Shown: piece by piece, positions 457 to 42,745 of the stretch
Layout of the letters: every line of letters starts with the position of its first letter
Numbering within the stretch: position 1 is the stretch's first letter
Source of the DNA: Nitrospirota bacterium
GTDB lineage: Bacteria; Nitrospirota; Nitrospiria; JACQBZ01
Reading direction: 5' to 3'
Length of the DNA stretch: 64,000 nucleotides
NCBI GenBank assembly: GCA_016194285.1
Contig: JACQBZ010000028.1
Location: 25,320-89,319, forward strand
The notes under the pieces: model-generated
Databases searched by the model: none
What the model was told of the DNA's origin: nothing
The model's input: the letters and a program-made list of their open reading frames with translations, nothing else
Program-made: the position numbers and the translations under genes

Positions 457-469
457 ATCTTCACGGTAT

Positions 470-928
470 TCATATGTGATACATTAATACCTTCTGTTTG
501 TCTTTATCTTTCTTTCGCTCGCAAATATCTTGAATGGTAATAGACTCCAGAATCTTCATCACGGCCGCTCGGACTTCTTCCCAGATCGGCTTTAGAATAT
601 CCTCGCCGGGTTCAATTTCATACGGATGAAAACGGTCGTCATTTCCGGAAGGACGGTTGGATGGACCGATCGGACCCTCGATCGCTTCCAGAACGTCGCT
701 GATCCGAATCTCGGAGGGCGGCCGGCTCAGTACATATCCGCCCTGTGCGCCTCGTACGCTCTCGATCAGACCGGCTTTTCGAAGGCCGCTTAACACCTGT
801 TCTAAGAACCGAAGGGGTATCTGCTGGTTCTTCGCGATTGTTTTAGCCTGTAGGGGTGTCTCTTCGACATGTTGAGCCAGTTCGAATACGGCCAATACAC
901 CATACTCCCCCTTTGCTGAAAAACGCAT
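470..928 (-). CDS. Rrf2-family transcriptional regulator (no Cys cluster)
   Basis: MRFSAKGEYGVLAV...GGYVLSRPPSEIRISDVLEAIEGP is a typical Rrf2 HTH. It has no cysteines, so it is not a Fe-S IscR/NsrR type. The likely ATG at 928 lies inside the track ORF 470..949. Confidence 0.75.
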   Translation of the reverse strand: MRFSAKGEYGVLAVFELAQHVEETPLQAKTIAKNQQIPLRFLEQVLSGLRKAGLIESVRGAQGGYVLSRPPSEIRISDVLEAIEGPIGPSNRPSGNDDRFHPYEIEPGEDILKPIWEEVRAAVMKILESITIQDICERKKDKDKQKVLMYHI

Positions 929-1134
929 AATTCCTACCTTTCCGATCAAAATTAAGTAATTTATATAATATTCATAATCATGATGTCAATAGTTTTTATT
1001 TTTTATATAAAATATAGTTATAATTCAAAATGTTATAAAGATAATAATTTTGTCTTGTAGCAATACGGTATTGCAATTTGATTTATTTTATGTTATTGTC
1101 GCACATATTTTTATTAACTTGAAGGGACCATAAT

Positions 1135-2448
1135 TTGCTGCATATCTGGGCAGAATTAATTTCAATTTTCTTGCTTATTTTGTTGAACGGCTTCTTTGCG
1201 TGTTCCGAGATCGCGATTATTGCGGTCCGCCGTAGCCGGATCAAGCAGCTATTTGAGCAGGGCAATCGCCGCGCTGGCTTTGTCCATCAACTCCAGGAAG
1301 ACACAGCAAGGTTCTTGGCTACGATTCAGATTGGTATGACGGTCGTCAGTTCCTTGGCTGCGGCTGTGGGCGGTGTTTTTGCCGTCGAGACACTCAAGCC
1401 CGTCATTCAGCAGATTCCAAACGAAACGGTGCAGGAAGCCAGTGAAGCTCTGGCGGTGGGAAGTGTCGTACTCGTGATTTCCTACCTCTCACTCATCATG
1501 GGCGAGCTGGTTCCAAAATCCCTCGCGCTGAAATATTCGGAACCCATTGCCCTGCGAGTGGCCCTCCCAATCGTTTGGATGTCAAAGCTCACGTCAAGAT
1601 TTATCAAGATCCTGACGCTTTCCAGCAACTTCCTGCTGCGTTTCTTTAAGGGACCGGTTTCGCATGAGAAAACCTTTATCTCGGAGGAGGAAATAAAGAT
1701 CCTGATCCGTGAAGGGCGTGAGAAAGGGATCTTCGACCAGACGGAACAAGATTTGATCCACAGCGTGTTTGAGTTCACGGATATTTCGGTCAAGGAAGTG
1801 ATGATTCCTCGCCCGAAGATGCATGCCCTACAGATCGATATGCCTTCGGACGAACTTTTGAAATTTGTATCCACCCATAAATTCTCTCGTTACCCGGTTT
1901 ATCGTAGAGGGGTTAATGAAATTGTCGGGATCCTGTATTACAAGGACCTTATGAGCCAGCTGGTCAGCAAGGAACCGATCGACTTGAAAAATCTCATCCG
2001 GCCCGTATATTTTGTCCCGGAGACCATGAAAGTGAGCCATCTCTTAAAGGAACTTCAGCGCCGTCGGATCCAGATGGCCGTTGTCGTGAACGAATATGGA
2101 AGTGTTGAAGGTCTGGTCACGCTGGAGGATCTTGTGGAAGAAATTGTAGGGGAAATTCAGGACGAGGTGGACCGCGGCGAACGGCCCGTCGAGCGGTTGA
2201 AGGACGGGTCCATGGTTGTGGACGCCTCGATGTCCATTCGTGACCTTCACGATGATTATGGTCTGTCTCTGCCGGAGTCGTCCGAGTACGAAACACTGGG
2301 AGGGTTCTTTCTTTCACAGATCCAGAGCATTCCCCGTGGGGGCGAGATCATTCAACATGGAAAGTATAAGTTTACCGTTGTGGACATGGCGGATCGACGA
2401 ATCGCCAAGGTCAAGATCGAGAAAATCCCTGAGAAAGTTTCTTCTTAG
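1135..2448 (+). CDS. CNNM/HlyC-CorC family transporter (DUF21 TM domain + CBS pair + CorC_HlyC C-terminal domain)
   Basis: 437 aa with an N-terminal membrane domain followed by CBS-pair and transporter-associated domain architecture. Confidence 0.8.
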   Translation: MLHIWAELISIFLLILLNGFFACSEIAIIAVRRSRIKQLFEQGNRRAGFVHQLQEDTARFLATIQIGMTVVSSLAAAVGGVFAVETLKPVIQQIPNETVQEASEALAVGSVVLVISYLSLIMGELVPKSLALKYSEPIALRVALPIVWMSKLTSRFIKILTLSSNFLLRFFKGPVSHEKTFISEEEIKILIREGREKGIFDQTEQDLIHSVFEFTDISVKEVMIPRPKMHALQIDMPSDELLKFVSTHKFSRYPVYRRGVNEIVGILYYKDLMSQLVSKEPIDLKNLIRPVYFVPETMKVSHLLKELQRRRIQMAVVVNEYGSVEGLVTLEDLVEEIVGEIQDEVDRGERPVERLKDGSMVVDASMSIRDLHDDYGLSLPESSEYETLGGFFLSQIQSIPRGGEIIQHGKYKFTVVDMADRRIAKVKIEKIPEKVSS

Positions 2449-2540
2449 ACCGCAATCTCAAAGGCGCATGCTCAGCCGCATTTGTTGAACTCATTTGAGC
2501 GCATCTCCATCGCCAAGGCCTGGCGATATCCCAGGCTCCT

Positions 2541-3404
2541 TCAAATCCTGCATTCAAGTCGAACCTGTTCTTGGTAAGCCTCGTGTAAGAGGCGGGTGAC
2601 GGGACCGGGCCTCCCATCACCAATCGTGAACCCATCCGCTTTCGCGACGGGCATGATCTCCATTGACGTGTTGGTCAGAAAGCACTCATCCGCTTTGTAA
2701 AGATCTGAGGGCCGGAGACGAGTTTCCTTCACAGGAATGTCGGCCTGCCTTGCCAAATCGATGACGAGTCGACGTGTGATTCCCGCCAAAATGCCCAGAT
2801 CAACCGTAGGAGTATAAAGCCGGCCTCGCGTCACGATAAAAAAATTGCTGATGCTTCCTTCGGTTAAATAGCCGTTGACGGCGAGCATCAGCCCTTCATC
2901 TGCACGGTTTCGCTTGGCCTGGATTTTAGCCAAGATGTTGTTGAGAAAGTTGGCCGATTTGATCTGGGGGTCCAAAACCGACCGAGGGGTCCTGCGCACC
3001 GACACAATGGCTATTTTCAATCCATGATGGTATTGACGGGGATTGTAACCGTTGAAGACGCGGGGGATAATGACGAACGTCGGTTTTCGGCAGAGGGCGG
3101 GATCCAAGCCGATCGGTCCACAACCGCGTGAAATACAGATTCGAAGCAAAGCATTTTTTAGATGGTTGACCAACAGAGTTTCATCGAGCTGTCGACGTAA
3201 AACGGGAAGGGTGTATGGGAGGAAGATTTCAAGTCCTCGGGCCGACTCTTTTAACCGCCTCAGGTGTTCGTCAGATCGAAAGAGCCTTCCTTGGTAAGCC
3301 CGCAGGGTTTCAAATACGCCGTCTCCATAAAGAAAACCATGGTCGAGTACGGAAATGACGGCTCTCTGTTCATCGACAAACTTGCTGTTGAGATAAATGC
3401 GCAT
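2541..3404 (-). CDS. Class IV (fold type IV) aminotransferase, likely aminodeoxychorismate lyase PabC or branched-chain/D-amino-acid aminotransferase
   Basis: HGFLYGDGVFETLRAY motif. It lies immediately downstream of pabB on the same strand. Confidence 0.75.
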   Translation of the reverse strand: MRIYLNSKFVDEQRAVISVLDHGFLYGDGVFETLRAYQGRLFRSDEHLRRLKESARGLEIFLPYTLPVLRRQLDETLLVNHLKNALLRICISRGCGPIGLDPALCRKPTFVIIPRVFNGYNPRQYHHGLKIAIVSVRRTPRSVLDPQIKSANFLNNILAKIQAKRNRADEGLMLAVNGYLTEGSISNFFIVTRGRLYTPTVDLGILAGITRRLVIDLARQADIPVKETRLRPSDLYKADECFLTNTSMEIMPVAKADGFTIGDGRPGPVTRLLHEAYQEQVRLECRI

Positions 3405-3410
3405 CGTCCG

Positions 3411-4886
3411 CTAACGCAACCGACTCAGAGCACGAAGCAAGGCCTCGGCTTTGTAAAGGGTTTCTTTATATTCAAGTTCAGGTTCCGAGTCGGCCACGAT
3501 GCCACCGCCGACCTGGATATAGGCGCGGCCATTTTTAATCACAAACGTCCGTATAATCAAGTTTAGGTCCAGTTCATCCGCAAAGCTGATATATCCGAAT
3601 GAGCCTGTATAGGGACCTCGAACCACCGGCTCCAATTCCTCGATGATCTCCATGCAGCGGACTTTGGGCACGCCGGTAATGGTCCCGCCCGGAAAGACGG
3701 CTCGGATGACGTCGAGGGAATGCTTGCCGGGTGAAAGTTCTCCACGGATATTGGAGACCATATGCATCACATGCGAGTAACGCTCCGTGACCATGAACTC
3801 ATTGACCTGGACGCTTCCGTAACGGCAGACTTTGCCAAGGTCATTCCGCTCCAGATCCACCAGCATGAGATGCTCCGCCCGTTCTTTTTCATTGGAGAGA
3901 AGTTCCATCCGCATTTCCCGGTCCTCGGGGGGATTTTCCCCTCGGGGTCGAGTTCCGGCGATGGGTCGGGTTTCAAGAAGGCCTTCTTGCAGACGGATAA
4001 GGCGTTCAGGAGAGGCACTGACCAGATAAAGATCTTCCATCTGGAGAAAGCCGGCAAAGGGAGAAGGATTGATTTCGCGCAGGACCTTGTACAGCAACCA
4101 AGGGTCCTGATCAAATGGAACCGAAAAGCGCTGTGAAAGATTAGCTTGATAAATGTCACCCGCAGCAATGTATTCTTTACACCGCAGGACCATTTTGATG
4201 TATTGTTCCTTTGTGAAATTCGAATCTGGATGAGCCGTCAGGGTCGAATTAGATTTGGGAAGACGACTTTGAATTGAACCTGCCAGTTGTTCCTCAATTC
4301 GTGCAATCTTCGATAGGCCCTTCTCCAAGAGGGCCTTACGGTCCGTGTGTAGAACATGGCTCTTGGGTGGCGTATAAATGATCTGGATGGTTTTTTGCTC
4401 ATGATCGAAGGCGATGACGGTATCTGTAAACATGAATAAAAGGTCTGGACAATCCAGATCATCCAAGCCAAGCCTGGGGAGTTTTTCGAAAAAACGGCCG
4501 ATGTCGTAACTGAAAAATCCGACGGCTCCGCCTGAAAAAGTGGGTAATCCTTCCGACTTGGGTATCGAAAACTCGTCGAGCAGGTTTTTCAGAATGGTCA
4601 ATGGAGATTCCTGGAGGATTTGGTGAGAACCTTGCCGATGGATCTCGCCCCGCTGGCCTTTCGTTCTCAAAACAAGGAAAGGTTCTGTTCCCACAAATGA
4701 GTAGCGTGCCGTTGCCCTCGACCCTTTCACACTTTCCAAAAGGAAACTAAAGGGACCGGTTGCGATGCGCTCATATGCCGCGACCGGTGTTGTCGTACTC
4801 CAGGATAGCCGTTTGACCAGCGAACCGGGATAAGGGCACTTTAGAAAGTGTTCTTTGGTTTGAAAATCCATTGAAAGGGGTTTCAT
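3411..4886 (-). CDS. pabB: Aminodeoxychorismate synthase component I / anthranilate synthase component I family (chorismate-binding)
   Basis: 491 aa with a chorismate-binding domain (PIAGTRPRG...ERAEHLMLVDLERNDL...GGTITGVPK). Confidence 0.8.
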   Translation of the reverse strand: MKPLSMDFQTKEHFLKCPYPGSLVKRLSWSTTTPVAAYERIATGPFSFLLESVKGSRATARYSFVGTEPFLVLRTKGQRGEIHRQGSHQILQESPLTILKNLLDEFSIPKSEGLPTFSGGAVGFFSYDIGRFFEKLPRLGLDDLDCPDLLFMFTDTVIAFDHEQKTIQIIYTPPKSHVLHTDRKALLEKGLSKIARIEEQLAGSIQSRLPKSNSTLTAHPDSNFTKEQYIKMVLRCKEYIAAGDIYQANLSQRFSVPFDQDPWLLYKVLREINPSPFAGFLQMEDLYLVSASPERLIRLQEGLLETRPIAGTRPRGENPPEDREMRMELLSNEKERAEHLMLVDLERNDLGKVCRYGSVQVNEFMVTERYSHVMHMVSNIRGELSPGKHSLDVIRAVFPGGTITGVPKVRCMEIIEELEPVVRGPYTGSFGYISFADELDLNLIIRTFVIKNGRAYIQVGGGIVADSEPELEYKETLYKAEALLRALSRLR

Positions 4887-8864: not shown

Positions 8865-10079
8865 ATGAAGTTGCCTATTTATATGGATAATCACGCAACA
8901 ACTCCCATGGACCCGCGGGTCCTGGAAGCGATGATGCCTTATTTTACCGAAAAGTTTGGGAACGCCGCCAGCCGTAATCATTCTTTCGGATGGGAAGCAG
9001 AAAAGGCGGTGGACGATGCACGGCGTCAGATCGCGACGCTCATCCATGCGGATCCGAAAGAGATCATCTTCACCTCCGGTGCAACGGAATCGGACAACCT
9101 GGCCTTGAAGGGTGTGGTGGAGATGTATCGAGAAAAAGGCGATCATATTATAACCTCGGTAACGGAACACCGGGCGATACTGGATACGGTAAAGCGGTTG
9201 GAGAAGCAGGGCATGAAGGTGACCTATCTGCCCGTTGATAAAGATGGGTTTGTGAACCCCGATGAGGTGAGCAAGGCGATCACGGATAAAACGATCCTGA
9301 TCTCGATCATGATGGCCAATAATGAGATCGGGACGGTCAATCCGATCGCCGAGATCGGTCGGATCGCAAAATCGAGGGGTGTCTTGTTCCATTGTGATGC
9401 CACGCAAGGCGTCGGGAAGATTCCGGTGGATGTCGAAGCAATGGGGATCGACCTGATGTCGTTTTCCGCCCATAAGATCTACGGGCCGAAAGGGGTCGGT
9501 GCGTTGTATGTTCGTCGTAAAAATCCACGAGTCCGCTTAGCCCCCATGATGGATGGTGGAGGGCATGAGCGAGGGATGCGTTCAGGGACATTGCCTGTCC
9601 CATTGATTGTGGGATTTGGCAAGGCCTGTGAGATCTGCATGCAGGTGATGCCGGAAGAGTCGAAGCGATTGACCGAGATGCGGGAACGATTAAAGGCAGG
9701 AATTCTCAAAAACTTGGACGAAGTCTATCTCAACGGGCATCCCACGAAACGCCTTCCGAACAATCTTAACCTGAGTTTTGCGTATGTGGAAGGCGAATCG
9801 GTCTTGATGGGGTTAAAAGAGATCGCGGTTTCTTCAGGCTCCGCCTGTACCTCCGCCACGCTGGAGCCTTCGTATGTGATCCGGGCGTTGGGTGTCGGTT
9901 CGGATCTTGCCCATTCCTCGATTCGGTTCGGATTGGGTCGGTTTAATACGGAAGAGGAAGTGGATTATGTCATCAAACGGGTGACGGAGACGATTCAAAA
10001 ACTTCGGGCGATGTCGCCGCTTTACGAAATGGCCAAAGAGGGCATTGATATTAAAACCGTACAGTGGGCAAGAGATTAA
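8865..10079 (+). CDS. iscS: Cysteine desulfurase IscS
   Basis: [19 protein letters not shown]...[12 protein letters not shown]...SSGSACTS is canonical IscS. Confidence 0.95.
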
Positions 10080-10103
10080 GATTAGCAAAGGGAGGTAAAT
10101 AAA

Positions 10104-10496
10104 ATGGCGTATAGCAATAAAGTGATTGAGCATTACAATAACCCGCGGAACATGGGAAGTTTTGCGAAGGATGAAAAGGAGATCGGGACCGGCATTGTAG
10201 GTGCGCCCGAATGCGGAGACGTTATGAAACTCCAAATCAAGGTGGAGTCCGGCCGCATCGTTGACGCAAAATTCAAGACATTCGGTTGCGGAAGCGCGAT
10301 TGCCAGTTCCAGTCTCGCGACCGAATGGATGAAAGGAAAGACGTTGGACGAGGCCGAAAAAATTAAGAATACCGAGATTGTCCAGGAACTGTCTTTGCCG
10401 CCGGTGAAGATTCATTGCTCCGTGCTGGCGGAGGACGCCATCAAAGCCGCCATTGCAGATTATCGCAAAAAAACCGACAACAACGGTTCTATTTAA
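10104..10496 (+). CDS. iscU: Fe-S cluster scaffold IscU
   Basis: NPRNMGS...GAPECGDVMKLQIKV...FKTFGCGSAIASSS. Confidence 0.95.
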   Translation: MAYSNKVIEHYNNPRNMGSFAKDEKEIGTGIVGAPECGDVMKLQIKVESGRIVDAKFKTFGCGSAIASSSLATEWMKGKTLDEAEKIKNTEIVQELSLPPVKIHCSVLAEDAIKAAIADYRKKTDNNGSI

Positions 10497-11612: not shown

Positions 11613-13436
11613 ATGTCAAAGATAGTGGGAATCGATCTCGGCACGACCAACAGTCTTGTCGCGTACATGGACGGTAAAGAGCCAAAGGTCATTGCGGACC
11701 GCGAGGGCCGGACGCTCGTCCCGTCCGTGATTTCGGTCGACGAGCAAGGTTGGATTGTCGGGGCGCGGGCCCAACGACGATTGATGACCCATCCGCAATC
11801 GACGGTTTATTCGGTCAAGCGTTTGATGGGAAAAGGGCTTGCCGATGCTCAAGAAGAGCGCAAGTACTTTCCCGTCTCTCTGACCGAGAAGCAGCCCGGA
11901 ATCATTCAGGTCGAATTGGGCCCATACCGATTGACCCCGCCCGAGTTATCGGCGCTCATTCTTAAGGAAGTCAAACACCGCGCGGAGGAATTTCTAGAGA
12001 CGACAGTCACACAAGCCGTCATCACGGTGCCGGCCTATTTCAATGACAGTCAGCGACAGGCGACCAAGGATGCGGGACGGATCGCCGGGTTGGATGTCTT
12101 GCGTATTGTGAACGAACCCACGGCGGCCTGCTTGGCCTACGGTCTCCAGAAAAAAAAGCAGGGTGTGATTGCGGTTTACGATTTGGGGGGCGGGACCTTT
12201 GATATCTCCATCCTGAAAGTCAAGGAAGGGATCTTTGAAGTTCTGGCCACCAATGGAAACACTCATTTGGGCGGGGATGACCTTGACCAACGGCTTATGG
12301 AACTGGTCCTGCAAGAAATCCGGGTTGAATTCGGACAGGATCTCCAAAGGGATGTGGAAGCGGTTCAGCAAATTCGCTTGGGGATGGAGAAAGCCAAGCG
12401 GCAACTGTCGACCGAAGAAGTGACCGAAGTTGTGATACCGCTAAAACAAGGGGTTGTTTATCGCCGCTCGCTTAAACGGGGTGAGCTCGAGTCCCGGGTC
12501 AGGGATCTGATCGATTTAACCATCGGCCCGTGTCGGCAGGCTCTGGAAGATGCGCATTTGTCGTTGAAAGATGTCGACGAAGTTGTTTTAGTGGGCGGCG
12601 CAACGCGCATGCCGTTGGTGCATCGATTGGTTCAGGAATTTTTTCAAAAAGCGCCCCACTCTGAACTGAATCCGGATGAAGTGGTCGCCTTGGGTGCCGC
12701 GGTCCAGGCCGATATCCTGGCGGGTGGCATTCAGAACATGCTCTTGTTGGACGTGACGCCCTTGTCGCTTGGCATCGAGACCATGGGGGGCGTAATGAGC
12801 GTGCTGATTCCGCGCAACAGTACGATCCCGACCAACGCCAAGGAACTTTTCACGACGTTCGTCGACGGTCAGCGTTCCGTGGACGTCCATGTCTACCAAG
12901 GGGAACGGGAGTTGGTGCAGGATAATCGCAGCCTCGCGAGATTCCAGCTCAAAGATCTCGATCCCCTGCCGGCGGGCCTGCCGCGGATCGAGGTCCATTT
13001 TACGATCGATGCGAATGGAATTCTTCACGTGAGCGCGAAGGATCTGCGCAGCGGCCGGGATCAGACGATCGAGGTGAAACCCTCCTACGGGCTCAGCGAC
13101 GACGAGGTCGCGCGGATGATCGAGGAGTCCTTCAAGTTTGCCAAAAGCGATATGGAAGCCCGATTGTTAATCGAAGCTCGGAACGAGGCCGCGACGATTC
13201 TCCGTCATACTGAACGGGCTTTAAAACAAGGGGAGCCACTGATCGCTTTGGACGAGCGAGATCGCATCCGAGACCGGATCACGGCGCTTAAGAAGGCCAC
13301 GGAAGGCGATGACCACCGTTTGATCCGCGAGAGGATCGAACAACTGGACAAGATCACGGTTCATCTGGCCGAATGTTTAATGGATTCGACCTTGCAGAGC
13401 GGTTTAAAAGATAAAAAACTTTCGGAACTGCCCTGA
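11613..13436 (+). CDS. hscA: Fe-S protein assembly chaperone HscA (Hsp70 family)
   Basis: [13 protein letters not shown]...DLGGGTFD.S are Hsp70 signatures. Confidence 0.95.
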
Positions 13437-39374: not shown

Positions 39375-39402
39375 TTGACAAAATACAGGGCCCTGCTAAT
39401 CT
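39375..39402 (+). promoter_or_regulatory. sigma70-like promoter TTGACA-16-TAATCT
   Basis: ttgaca at 39375-39380 and taatct at 39397-39402. Confidence 0.45.
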
Positions 39403-39424
39403 TTTATTAGACAGCTGAATCGAT

Positions 39425-39515
39425 CCAAGAAAAACGCAAACCAGTCGAAAGGCTGGGACGCAAAGCTTCAAGGCTTCGCCTTCAGCGATGAAGGCATGCT
39501 AGTTGGGCTGCCCTG
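39425..39515 (+). ncRNA. Probable cyclic-di-GMP-I (GEMM) riboswitch aptamer
   Basis: ACGCAAACCAGUCGAAAGGCUGGGACGCAAAGC matches the GEMM-I core (GCAAACC-stem-GAAA-stem-GGGACGCAAAGCC, cf. Vc2). The compensatory P1 pairs are CCAGUC/GGCUGG. Confidence 0.6.
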
Positions 39516-39544
39516 GATTAACAAAAGAATGTTTTTCCATGCGT

Positions 39545-39578
39545 AGCCCATTTCTGAAAAGAAATGGGCTTTTTTATT
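39545..39578 (+). terminator. Intrinsic terminator (expression platform of the riboswitch)
   Basis: AGCCCAUUUC-ugaaaa-GAAAUGGGCU followed by UUUUUUAUU, about 80 nt upstream of the lipoprotein start codon. Confidence 0.7.
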
Positions 39579-39659
39579 GCGGATCTGCGGGCGACGGTTC
39601 GATTCGGAGGATGAGGTTAAAGCACTTAACCGAAAGTCCACTGGGAGGAGGCAAAGAAA

Positions 39660-42209
39660 ATGAAGAAGATGCTCGCAACCGCGTTGGTTTCAATGATCTG
39701 CGCGTTGGGGATCACCGCCTGCAGCGGAGGGGGCGGCAGTTCATCGGGAAGCGCCGGAGGTTCCGTGACCGGCTTCAGCGTGCCGACCGAGATATCGGCC
39801 GTGCCGACGAATCAGTCCGGGGGGGGTGTTCAGGCGACCTTGAAATCCAAGCTCGTCGCCTTGCAGGCGGCGACCGATCCTGGAACGGATTACAGCAACG
39901 CGAAGACCGTAAAGTTCGTGGAGGAGCGCACGCTTGAACAGTTTGATATCATCGAGCAGATCATGAAGGCGTTGGCTCAAACGAAATACGCCGACCCGGC
40001 GAACGTCAATCAAGGGCCCTACAAGGCCATGATCGCCTGGCAGGACAACCAAAACGGTGTTGAAACTAAAACGCTGGAGCCCTGGGTGGTGGATTCCAGC
40101 ATGATCGTGGAAAACGGTCAAAACGTGAATCGCGTGCAGGTCTGGGTGGAAGAGCCGGATGAAATGGGAGGAACGCGCGTCGTCAAAGCCGAATTTAAGA
40201 TCTATGCCTCGGCGACCCAACGGAGCGACGGTTCCTATCAGGATTACGGCGTCTGGACACTGAACGTCAAATTTGACGACGCGGCGACCTCCTTCTTCGC
40301 GGCCGACGCCTCGATCGGACCGAACGGGGAAACGATTCTCAAGCTCCACGAGAACTCGATTGAAAACCAGGTGCTGCATGTGGCGAAAGCCATATTGAAC
40401 AAATCCGACACGCAGGGGTTCGGACAGGTGCTCTATCCGGACTGGAGCAACTGCATGGATCTGAACTGCATTCCGACGTCGGTGACGGCGAAGTACGTAT
40501 ACGACGCGAATGATCTCGGGGTGCAAAAAGGAAGCGATCCCGTGGCCTATAAAGACCGCAACACCGTCGTCGAGATGACACACCGCTACGGGCTGTTTGA
40601 CAGCGTCACGGGCGATGATGTCATGAGGACGAAGTCGTTCGGTTTCCCGGTCCAGTTTACACTCAACGGCGTGAATCAATTCGCCTATTACGGCGCCTGG
40701 CAGGGGCGGCATCAGCTCTGGGCCGGACAGGGCGCGACGGTGCCGGCCGGGACGGTCGTGACCCGTCAGGACCGGGGCTCGAATCAGGCCCCCGAGACGT
40801 ATACCGTATCGGCGCCTTTTATCGGGACCTTGACGAAGCGGACGTTGGTGCTGGCCGATATCAACGATCTCCTGAACATTCCCGTGGAGACCTGGGTTAA
40901 TATGAATTCCAACCTTCAGTATGACGGTTCTCAATGGGTGGATTGCAAGAATCCGGACTTCAGCACCTTCCCGCCCACCTGCGGCGCGGGATCGGCTCCG
41001 TTCACCGATTTCAGCTCTCTGACGTTCAATCCCAACGACCATCGGAAGTTCATCGGGATTAACCGATGGGACAACGCCAGCCAGACGAACCTCGACTATG
41101 TTTATGAGTCCAACGGACCGTCGGGCGCCGGGTTCTATGTCGCGACCCGTGATCCGAACACCGGAAACCTGACCCCCACCGCAACATTATTTTCTCCGGT
41201 CGCCGGGGATCAGTTGTGGGTGAATATCGGCGGATCGATCTATATCATGTATACCGGAACTGGTGCGACCGGCTGGGTGCAAAAAACGCTGCTAAGTTTC
41301 GATGACAGTACTTGGACTCCCGTCTTTGATCCTACAGGAGACGTTGATTATACCCTGCCGCTGGATCGGGAATATTACATCAACAACAGCGGGGCCAATT
41401 ATGTCGTCAAAAGAACGGCGTCCGGATACGATGTCAAGATCGAACTCCAGACCGTGGCCAATCCGGTCAATGCGACCTCGTTCCTTGATCCGAACACACG
41501 GTTTATGGTCCAATGGGCGGCCTGGGGGGACGGCGTCAATTCAACCTATCGGTTTGAAACATCGAGCGGCAGCCCCGATTTTCTGAAGCTCGTTTATAAC
41601 ACGGTGGGATCCAATGACGCCAACCTGCTGAATGCCTCGGGTCAGCCGGTCCAAGCCGGCGATGTTCTCGCTCAAGGCCAATGGGGACTGATGGCCTATG
41701 TGAATGGCGTCAGCACCGGCATTCAGTACAACTGGGAATACCCGCGAGCGGGCGAGACGTGGGGAATACTGACTTACCTGATCGATTCCAACAATGCCTA
41801 CAAGCTGTTGGATGATCCGATCCGGTTGGACCCGATGACCCTGACCAACAACGGGGGCATTTCCAAAGTCTTGTCGCTACAGTACGACGGCTGGATGCAC
41901 GGTCTGCCGGATCTGTATGAAGATCTGAGAAAGAATGATTTTGTGATGACGGCCGATATTTCCAGCAAGATCATCAATATTCCGGACGGGACGGTCGCGA
42001 CCGATTCGATCGATCCGGCCAAGAGCTACCTCATCAAGCCGCTCGAGATCAGCCAGTTCCTCAACGTGGTGGCCGATCCCGGCACGCTGGATATGACGGT
42101 CGCCGACACCGTGGATCTCTCGACTGTTCCAAATTTCGTCGAGCATAACATGGGACCGATGCCGCCGGTGACGGGGGTGAAGTACTCGGAGGGAATCTTG
42201 GTGCAGTAA
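39660..42209 (+). CDS. Large (849 aa) domain-less cell-surface lipoprotein under putative c-di-GMP riboswitch control
   Basis: SD ggaggaggcaaagaaaATG. Lipobox LGITAC plus a Gly/Ser-rich linker. I recognise no conserved domain. Confidence 0.7.
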   Translation: MKKMLATALVSMICALGITACSGGGGSSSGSAGGSVTGFSVPTEISAVPTNQSGGGVQATLKSKLVALQAATDPGTDYSNAKTVKFVEERTLEQFDIIEQIMKALAQTKYADPANVNQGPYKAMIAWQDNQNGVETKTLEPWVVDSSMIVENGQNVNRVQVWVEEPDEMGGTRVVKAEFKIYASATQRSDGSYQDYGVWTLNVKFDDAATSFFAADASIGPNGETILKLHENSIENQVLHVAKAILNKSDTQGFGQVLYPDWSNCMDLNCIPTSVTAKYVYDANDLGVQKGSDPVAYKDRNTVVEMTHRYGLFDSVTGDDVMRTKSFGFPVQFTLNGVNQFAYYGAWQGRHQLWAGQGATVPAGTVVTRQDRGSNQAPETYTVSAPFIGTLTKRTLVLADINDLLNIPVETWVNMNSNLQYDGSQWVDCKNPDFSTFPPTCGAGSAPFTDFSSLTFNPNDHRKFIGINRWDNASQTNLDYVYESNGPSGAGFYVATRDPNTGNLTPTATLFSPVAGDQLWVNIGGSIYIMYTGTGATGWVQKTLLSFDDSTWTPVFDPTGDVDYTLPLDREYYINNSGANYVVKRTASGYDVKIELQTVANPVNATSFLDPNTRFMVQWAAWGDGVNSTYRFETSSGSPDFLKLVYNTVGSNDANLLNASGQPVQAGDVLAQGQWGLMAYVNGVSTGIQYNWEYPRAGETWGILTYLIDSNNAYKLLDDPIRLDPMTLTNNGGISKVLSLQYDGWMHGLPDLYEDLRKNDFVMTADISSKIINIPDGTVATDSIDPAKSYLIKPLEISQFLNVVADPGTLDMTVADTVDLSTVPNFVEHNMGPMPPVTGVKYSEGILVQ

Positions 42210-42223
42210 GACATCCGGAGGGA

Positions 42224-42258
42224 AAGGGGGGTGCCTCACGGCACCCCCCCTTTTTATT
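42224..42258. terminator. Bidirectional intrinsic terminator
   Basis: GGGGGGUGCC-ucac-GGCACCCCCC followed by UUUUUAUU, between the convergent lipoprotein and MEKHLA genes. Confidence 0.75.
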
Positions 42259-42289: not shown

Positions 42290-42745
42290 TCATAAATAAG
42301 TCCAGCGGCTGAAGGTCGCGGCCTGGCCGCGGTACCGATCCTGCTCGTCGAGCAGATTCCAGACGATGGCTTTTTCGACCCGGAAGCGTCGGCCTGTTTT
42401 GGAAATTCGCACCCCTCGATAGCCGTCCATAAAACCTTTCTTCGACACCTCGGACAGAAGTCTTGCGCGCTCGGCCTGTTCCATCGGCTCGGCCGTGAGG
42501 CACGACGGTGTTTTTGTGAACTCCTCCCACGACATTTCCCAGAGCGTCAACGCCGCCTGATTGCCGTAATTCAGAACAGGATCGTCTTCGGTACCGTGCG
42601 AGATGACGACGAACGGCATGTTGAACAAGCGCCGGGTCAGTTCTTCCGGCGAGCCGGAAGCCGGAATCAGATCCCGCCCCGTCCAACGCCGATAGCTTGA
42701 GAGCAGGCGCTGCGTGTGATCAATCAGAAAAGCCGAGATCACCAC
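42290..42745 (-). CDS. MEKHLA domain-containing protein
   Basis: 151 aa with a PAS-like MEKHLA signature (family call from memory). Confidence 0.5.
   Translation of the reverse strand: MVISAFLIDHTQRLLSSYRRWTGRDLIPASGSPEELTRRLFNMPFVVISHGTEDDPVLNYGNQAALTLWEMSWEEFTKTPSCLTAEPMEQAERARLLSEVSKKGFMDGYRGVRISKTGRRFRVEKAIVWNLLDEQDRYRGQAATFSRWTYL

Follow-up and report, generated by a model that had tools for sequence, protein, structure and literature searches.

A GEMM-I riboswitch of predicted OFF design precedes an unnamed lipoprotein family in Nitrospirota

For many genes under second-messenger riboswitches, no function is yet known. In Clostridioides difficile, the Cd1 riboswitch upstream of the flagellar flgB operon is an OFF-acting member of the cyclic di-GMP (c-di-GMP)-I class that works by termination, and in Geobacter the usual targets of GEMM riboswitches are multihaem outer-surface cytochromes. 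Here we describe a GEMM-I (c-di-GMP-I class) riboswitch and the gene that follows it in a 64,000-nucleotide stretch of DNA from a Nitrospirota bacterium (assembly GCA_016194285.1, contig JACQBZ010000028.1, positions 25,320 to 89,319), referred to below as the window. The aptamer occupies positions 39423-39518 (+), and the gene, at 39660-42209 (+), starts with ATG and encodes a lipoprotein of 849 amino acids. Our best explanation, which we consider on balance a probable one, is that the product is a lipoprotein from an uncharacterised family, compact, all-beta and anchored in the outer membrane, and that in Nitrospirota a cyclic dinucleotide shuts off its synthesis through riboswitch-controlled termination, which would make it a protein of the low-second-messenger state.

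The Vibrio cholerae Vc2 riboswitch upstream of tfoY has been described as an off-switch (bioRxiv 10.1101/617340). The locus studied here resembles Vc2/tfoY and Cd1/flgB in its aptamer class and in the prediction that ligand turns down a gene that belongs to the low-c-di-GMP state. It differs from both in that the regulated gene encodes an uncharacterised lipoprotein, the antiterminator uses the 3' strand of P2 together with C92, the lineage is Nitrospirota, and the window copy carries C rather than G at position 20. The GEMM-Ib riboswitches of Geobacter, which sense cyclic GMP-AMP (cGAMP) and lie, for example, upstream of GSU1761, likewise place a GEMM-I scaffold before monocistronic genes for extracytoplasmic proteins or lipoproteins, and there too variation at position 20 alters the choice of ligand; deletion of the cGAMP synthase lowers their transcripts (PMC6140456, PMC8835794). 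GEMM-Ib riboswitches have A20 and activate expression, whereas most orthologs of the window leader have G20, the window itself has C20, and the expression platform predicts repression.

The class of riboswitch and control by termination are both known already, as is the placing of genes for secreted proteins and lipoproteins under such control. What is new is the recognition of an unnamed family as a riboswitch output that is conserved in Nitrospirota, including the Manganitrophaceae, together with the predicted repressive sign and the natural G/A/C variation at position 20. Our literature search found no paper linking Manganitrophus with lipoproteins or with c-di-GMP. One riboswitch output is now defined as a coherent, widespread family, whose structure is predicted with confidence but has no match, and its linkage to the riboswitch is kept across a lineage that includes the cultivated manganese oxidiser Candidatus (Ca.) Manganitrophus noduliformans.

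Aptamer, expression platform and predicted direction of control

An earlier inspection of the window from its letters alone (the sequence-only reading) had proposed a candidate GEMM riboswitch in front of the lipoprotein gene, and the candidate is real. RF01051 matches the plus strand at 39425-39515 over the full length of the model (1-87), with 69.7 bits against a gathering score of 35 (E 1.3e-11), and this is the sole Rfam match in the 64 kb. The coordinates of the aptamer given above include the outer P1 helix (ATCCA at 39423-39427 with TGGAT at 39514-39518). We built a covariance model, R1, from 12 orthologous aptamers, with which the window copy scores 115.8 bits. Its 31 pairs are 92.5% paired in the 12 orthologs, with compensatory changes at 16 of them, a level that none of 500 shuffles reached, and the two-hairpin architecture closed by P1 is confirmed for the window aptamer.

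The direction of control is indicated by the sequence between the aptamer and the gene. A terminator scan placed an intrinsic terminator in the leader at 39545-39578 (+), where the hairpin AGCCCATTTCT-GAAA-AGAAATGGGCT (39545-39570) is followed by the T-run TTTTTTATT. It is present in every Nitrospirota ortholog with a conserved sequence (G[GA]CCCATTTC, loop, GAAATGGGC, T6), and its 10-bp stem is 100% paired in 23 sequences. This conservation of sequence can be explained because the 3' strand of the aptamer pairs alternatively with the 5' arm of the terminator. Covariation and folding define an antiterminator at 39504-39550 (+), in which UGGGCUGC (39504-39511; the 3' strand of P2 and C92) pairs with GUAGCCCA (39543-39550), and which in the window encloses a UGGA:UCCA pairing (the 3' strand of P1 at 39514-39517 with 39536-39539) and a small hairpin. 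Within the aptamer, the P2 3' strand and junction form an invariant segment, UGGGC-y1-y2-C, which occupies 39504-39511 in the window and has C92 as its last nucleotide. This segment matches the terminator's 3' arm exactly and is complementary to the 5' arm together with the two nucleotides just before it (39543-39550).

Comparison of the orthologous leaders argues for this alternative helix. Its 8 bp are 95.7% paired in 23 orthologs, as against 25-46% for all slid controls, and two positions covary: y1:x1 is C-G in 16 leaders and U-A in seven, and y2:n is G-C in 11, A-U in seven and G-U in three. The y2:n pair lies outside the terminator stem, so its covariation is explicable only by the antiterminator helix. 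In RNAfold predictions, the antiterminator composite is the minimum free energy (MFE) structure of the ligand-free nascent window leader (-52.5 kcal/mol), and the ligand-free MFE structure holds at least six of the eight antiterminator pairs in all 23 orthologous leaders. The terminator stem itself is free of aptamer nucleotides, and a classical OFF design is therefore the only consistent reading.

From structure and covariation, it is likely that ligand binding terminates transcription and that the riboswitch is an OFF switch. Without ligand, the 3' half of the aptamer, which comprises the 3' strands of P2 and P1 and the ligand-pairing C92, would pair with the terminator's 5' arm; the antiterminator so formed would allow RNA polymerase to read through and the lipoprotein to be made. 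With ligand bound, the same nucleotides would be locked in the aptamer, the terminator hairpin would form, and transcription would stop before the gene. An OFF switch would place the lipoprotein in the low-c-di-GMP state and not in the matrix: it would be an output of low cyclic-dinucleotide conditions (planktonic life, dispersal or envelope remodelling) instead of a biofilm-induced product. The sequence-only reading had pointed towards biofilm or matrix, a direction that is not borne out, since the platform predicts that ligand switches the gene off. The phenotype to seek is reversed as well, to dispersal, planktonic or envelope traits rather than a gain of biofilm.

Locus L096 (~3035-4494, LWDU01037104.1; loci in our survey are denoted L001 and so on) has a PilX_N gene preceded by a same-subtype aptamer whose terminator and antiterminator follow the same design (GGCCCGTTTCT...GAACGGGC-T7). 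The 400-residue product has a PilX_N (type IV pilus minor pilin) domain. This single case would fit a 'low-c-di-GMP' regulon shared by the pilus gene and the lipoprotein.

The identity of the ligand calls for more caution than the direction of control. In the c-di-GMP complex, G20 reads the Hoogsteen edge of one guanine, C92 forms a Watson-Crick pair with the other, and A47 stacks between them (PMC6140456). The equivalents in the window are C39435 at position 20, which is normally G, A39462 for A47 and C39511 for C92. A47 and C92 are invariant among 25 family-linked aptamers. Position 20 varies: 22 of them carry G there, L001 (~3481) and L020 (~4155) carry A, and the window carries C. An A at this position marks the cGAMP-sensing GEMM-Ib riboswitches, and the G20A change in Vc2 turns picomolar c-di-GMP binding into near-equal binding of c-di-GMP (53 nM) and cGAMP (120 nM) (PMC6140456). 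The window, with its C, lacks the GEMM-Ib signature, which occurs only in L001 and L020. The ancestral ligand of the family-linked aptamers was almost certainly c-di-GMP, judging from these positions; the ligand of the C20 aptamer in the window is uncertain, and we found no data in the literature on a C20 variant of the GEMM-I aptamer. The proposal that the gene is a c-di-GMP effector output therefore stands in part: GEMM-I control is upheld, but c-di-GMP as the ligand of the window copy is not supported, G20 being replaced by C. The natural G/A/C series in otherwise orthologous leaders provides a test set for the tuning of ligand specificity in GEMM-I.

The aptamers of L002 (3802-3898), L003, L004, L010, L014 and L017 were labelled RF03167 ('c-di-GMP-I-GGC') by Rfam, at 62-64 bits against a gathering score of 59. 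We rejected this label as a marginal effect of model competition: the defining G47 (GCGAAG versus GCAAAG) is absent, all 25 aptamers having A47. On this sequence criterion the six are treated as ordinary c-di-GMP-I aptamers.

Distribution of the riboswitch and of the lipoprotein family

The linkage between riboswitch and gene was surveyed by Rfam scans of 37 related loci together with the covariance model from 12 orthologous aptamers. In Nitrospirota, 24 of the 27 loci with upstream sequence have an aptamer in the orientation of the homolog, ~80-240 nt ahead of its start (the window, L001-L017, L020, L027, L028, L052, L078 and L081, the last from Ca. M. noduliformans), and the proteins of these loci range from 88% down to ~50% identity to that of the window. 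A conserved linkage in relatives, which the sequence-only reading had named as a check on its proposal, is thus found down to ~50% identity. Since the neighbouring genes vary from locus to locus, it is the lipoprotein gene that the aptamer accompanies. The linkage is lineage-specific, to Nitrospirota, and is not a property of the whole family.

Metagenome contigs carrying the pattern of this aptamer subtype numbered 33, and in 14 of them the family gene lies directly downstream. In the remainder the aptamer precedes a PilX_N minor-pilin-like gene, QueE-like radical-SAM genes, or genes for lipoproteins of high-GC taxa. GEMM-I aptamers of another subtype stand upstream of QueE-like radical-SAM genes (Radical_SAM and Fer4_12) in L095 (1655-2697), L097, L098 and L112, an unusual target for a riboswitch of the c-di-GMP class.

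Outside Nitrospirota, the only locus with an aptamer (1 of 54) is L026, from a gammaproteobacterium. Its divergent GEMM-I aptamer (676-764, 64 bits) lies ~260 nt upstream of the family gene, its leader has no recognisable terminator, and it may represent an independent recruitment of c-di-GMP control. In L006, the whole riboswitch, aptamer and terminator, is tandemly duplicated upstream of the family gene (1025-1208 and 1297-1480; 184 nt, 98% identical), giving two complete switches in series.

The lipoprotein itself resisted assignment. Pfam gave no match, and single scans of 42 aligned family members yielded scattered noise only; there was no real NCBIfam match and no PDB sequence match. Over the sequence and profile searches of the PDB, the lone exception was a weak hint of NHL/'Pizza' propeller blades at residues 523-609 (E 0.003 and 0.03). 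The statement in the sequence-only reading that no motif ties the protein to a known family agrees with these results; sequence, profile and Foldseek searches also found no homology to a characterised family of unrelated function, which that reading had said would count against it.

A word-indexed search returned 378 matches. Their annotations are 'hypothetical protein' or 'Lipoprotein' throughout, no Pfam domain occurs in any of them, and a groundwater 'Nitrospirae bacterium' metagenome-assembled genome supplies an entry that is 100% identical. An exhaustive profile search of 1.84 billion representatives found 572 clusters (50% identity) with E<=1e-3, of which 155 reach E<=1e-30; almost all are full-length, at 800-1000 amino acids. 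In GTDB genomes the family is patchily distributed, occurring in Nitrospirota (many of them Ca. Manganitrophaceae, including Ca. Manganitrophus noduliformans), Acidobacteriota, Desulfobacterota, Anaeromyxobacteraceae and, among Gammaproteobacteria, Ca. Tenderia, Chromatiaceae and Thiotrichaceae. The lipoprotein belongs to a family that is real and large but has no name, and for which no relative of known function or structure could be detected.

Predicted structure, localisation and competing explanations

The N-terminus reads MKKMLATALVSMICALGITAC and then SGGGGSSSGSAGGS, that is, the lipobox LGITAC with Cys21 followed by a Gly/Ser linker, as the sequence-only reading had described for the 849-residue open reading frame. 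By pattern matching, the signal peptide with its lipobox (residues 1-21, 39660-39722, +) has an n-region with K2-K3, a hydrophobic core and ITAC ending in Cys21, and fits [LVI][ASTVI][GAS]C. The lipobox Cys is kept in 38 of 42 aligned homologs, and L-x-[AGS]-C with a G/S/T-rich linker is found in all orthologs examined. Beyond the Gly/Ser tether (residues 22-37), the AlphaFold2 model shows a compact all-beta body (residues ~38-849). The mature protein has 828 residues, ~90 kDa and an isoelectric point of 4.5. The four remaining Cys form two conserved pairs (265/270 and 429/441), which fit an oxidising extracytoplasmic compartment. Many polar and aromatic residues are invariant, for example in DGSYxDYGVW (190-199), YYGAWQGRHQLW (343-354) and DGWMHGLPD (743-751). 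In Escherichia coli, lipoproteins without Asp at position +2 after the lipid Cys are sorted to the outer membrane; no Asp stands there in this protein, so outer-membrane sorting would be expected. From these sequence features the lipoprotein is most likely extracytoplasmic and anchored in the outer membrane. A homolog of 1102 residues, P0151, has three CHB_HEX_C_1/Fn3_assoc immunoglobulin (Ig)-like domains N-terminal to the conserved core, at residues ~49-250, an arrangement that fits an extracellular or envelope location.

The AlphaFold2 model, computed from a 42-sequence alignment, is almost wholly beta, as the composition of the sequence had led the sequence-only reading to expect. It has a mean predicted local distance difference test score (pLDDT) of 82.5 and a predicted template-modelling score (pTM) of 0.73, with disorder confined to residues 1-34 and 54-68. 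The N-terminal 392 residues folded alone gave lower confidence (pLDDT 77.5, pTM 0.56), and this drop, set beside the high pTM of the whole chain, points to a single integrated body and not to a chain of separate domains. No tandem repeats were found in the DNA by Tandem Repeats Finder, and no internal repeats at profile level by hhalign of lipoprotein sub-profiles. Foldseek with the model gave no significant match (best E 0.057, template-modelling (TM) score <= 0.23). The N-terminal domain is modelled as a long helix with a long, curved beta-meander wound around it, and its best Foldseek neighbours, none of them significant, are a DUF1849 barrel-like protein, LptD, Osh6, PagP, START and ApoB-type lipid binders. 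The nearest of these, the DUF1849 beta-barrel-like protein (PDB 6ntr; E 0.057, probability 0.63), is below significance (TM 0.16-0.23, root-mean-square deviation 14 A), has no sequence similarity to the lipoprotein, and is likewise of unknown function. Surface lipoproteins of the Neisseria type (TbpB, HpuA, fHbp) share the lipobox Cys, a poly-Gly/Ser tether and a beta-rich body. TbpB and HpuA appear far down the Foldseek lists at insignificant scores (E 0.4-2.7), however, and the present protein is far larger, with one compact body. As to their export partner Slam (DUF560), no neighbour of any kind is conserved across 81 loci; neither a Slam-specific check of neighbours nor a genome-wide DUF560 search was made. 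In the model, the lipoprotein is compact, non-repetitive and all-beta, and looks more like a binding protein or an enzyme than a fibrillar adhesin.

The sequence-only reading had envisaged a biofilm/matrix or cell-surface protein, with the surface location assumed rather than observed. A surface adhesin or matrix protein of this kind would have to be induced by c-di-GMP through an ON switch. GEMM riboswitches do commonly precede genes for secreted or surface proteins, a lipobox and a long flexible tether are present, and the Ig-like domains of P0151 are typical of extracellular proteins. Against this stand the competition of the aptamer 3' half with the terminator 3' arm for the terminator 5' arm, which is an OFF design, and the protein itself: repeats are absent, Pfam found no known adhesive domain in the 42 members, and the model is a compact single body. 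An ON-switch adhesin is accordingly improbable. The protein does not resemble a multihaem outer-surface cytochrome either, as no CXXCH haem motif occurs anywhere in its sequence. A periplasm-facing outer-membrane lipoprotein with a role in the envelope or in lipid handling, instead of one on the cell surface, seems to us unlikely, if less so than the adhesin. The expected outer-membrane sorting, the lipid binders among the neighbours of the N-terminal helix/beta-meander domain and the lack of a surface-export partner conserved beside the gene would agree with it, but the structural matches are all insignificant, housekeeping envelope proteins are seldom under second-messenger riboswitches, and the family is patchily distributed.

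The remaining alternative concerns the ligand, and is compatible with the architecture we favour: the riboswitch of the window genome may have changed its ligand and sense another cyclic dinucleotide, or may have become blind to ligand and be mostly read through. The C at position 20, with A in the closest relative, L001, and in L020 and G in 22 of 25, speaks for such a change, as does the altered ligand preference of Vc2 G20A. Yet Vc2 mutants at G20 still bind c-di-GMP at nanomolar affinity (PMC6140456), and the window leader retains A47, C92 and every helix as well as an intact terminator and antiterminator, which argues that a working switch is still under selection. We regard a changed or lost ligand as possible though doubtful. 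For our own explanation, that of an OFF-controlled, outer-membrane-anchored lipoprotein, the same substitution is a difficulty, as the affinity of the window aptamer for c-di-GMP may be low, or the aptamer may have another ligand or none at all. Other points also weigh against it. The OFF logic rests on thermodynamic folding and on covariation from few inherited substitutions; three Nitrospirota loci (L021, L059 and L077) have no aptamer, and the aptamer is absent from 53 of the 54 loci of other phyla, so this regulation is not intrinsic to the family. A bolder version, to which we give little credence, would make the lipoprotein a new-fold envelope protein produced by Manganitrophaceae and related Nitrospirota specifically at low c-di-GMP, perhaps a factor for dispersal or surface remodelling in manganese-oxidising chemolithoautotrophs that live attached to minerals, with C20 (window) and A20 (L001, L020) as natural retunings of a GEMM-I OFF switch to another cyclic dinucleotide.

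Transcription unit and neighbouring genes

A promoter-like element can be read from the sequence at 39375-39402 (+), with a -35 hexamer TTGACA (39375-39380), a 16-nt spacer and a weak -10 TAATCT (39397-39402). The -35 is perfect, but the -10 matches at only three of six positions, so the element fails a strict sigma-70 scan. A strong Shine-Dalgarno sequence, GGGAGGAGG, read at 39643-39651 (+), serves as the putative ribosome-binding site, and similar motifs precede the orthologous start codons. After the stop codon, the terminator scan recovered a GC-rich hairpin, GGGGGGTGCC-TCAC-GGCACCCCCC (42226-42249), followed by the T-run CTTTTTATT, which together form an intrinsic terminator at 42226-42258 (+). 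The sequence-only reading had called it strong and bidirectional; this holds for the plus strand, but on the minus strand the hairpin has the tail TTTCCC and no proper T-run. The upstream neighbour, on the plus strand, encodes an unrelated S-adenosylmethionine-dependent methyltransferase, and the downstream neighbours, on the minus strand, encode a MEKHLA-domain protein and an aldo/keto reductase, also unrelated. With terminators on both sides and the next gene on the opposite strand, the unit is monocistronic, as that reading had supposed, and the lipoprotein gene is the monocistronic output of the GEMM-I riboswitch. The MEKHLA-domain protein, convergent with the lipoprotein gene at 42290-42745 (-), is a stand-alone one (E 2e-60).

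Clustering of gene neighbourhoods over the 81 loci revealed no conserved partner gene; the largest clusters were set aside as antisense artefacts, generic REC-domain regulators or ABC permeases. Genes for c-di-GMP turnover lie near family members in several phyla, all on the minus strand (L052 4592-5572, L056 3740-5404, L076 3342-5156, L059 2097-3167, L083 4789-5724). Their domains (FHA-GGDEF, REC-GAF-HD-GYP, PAS-GGDEF-EAL, REC-HD-GYP) were assigned by reading the sequences, Pfam backing only the FHA-GGDEF of L083. We discarded c-di-GMP enzyme genes as evidence, as they stand beside family genes at ~6% of loci, not clearly above the expectation for abundant genes.

A gene for a GH77 4-alpha-glucanotransferase (malQ) adjoins family genes in two unrelated lineages (L003 8423-10153; L052 8654-10253; L042, L043, L047 and L049 at ~465-3680 and 8891-10162), and in the Ca. 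Tenderia and Chromatiaceae loci the lipoprotein gene lies amid GH57, malQ and glgC genes. An operon of malQ and the lipoprotein gene was considered and rejected, as a terminator stands between the two in L003. In the Manganitrophaceae locus L014, an Rfam match to 5_ureB_sRNA (11654-11952, 96.5 bits) lies ~3 kb downstream of the family gene; the M. noduliformans locus L081, a close relative of L014, has urease genes in the corresponding downstream stretch, and the match probably reflects conserved ureB coding sequence rather than a small RNA.

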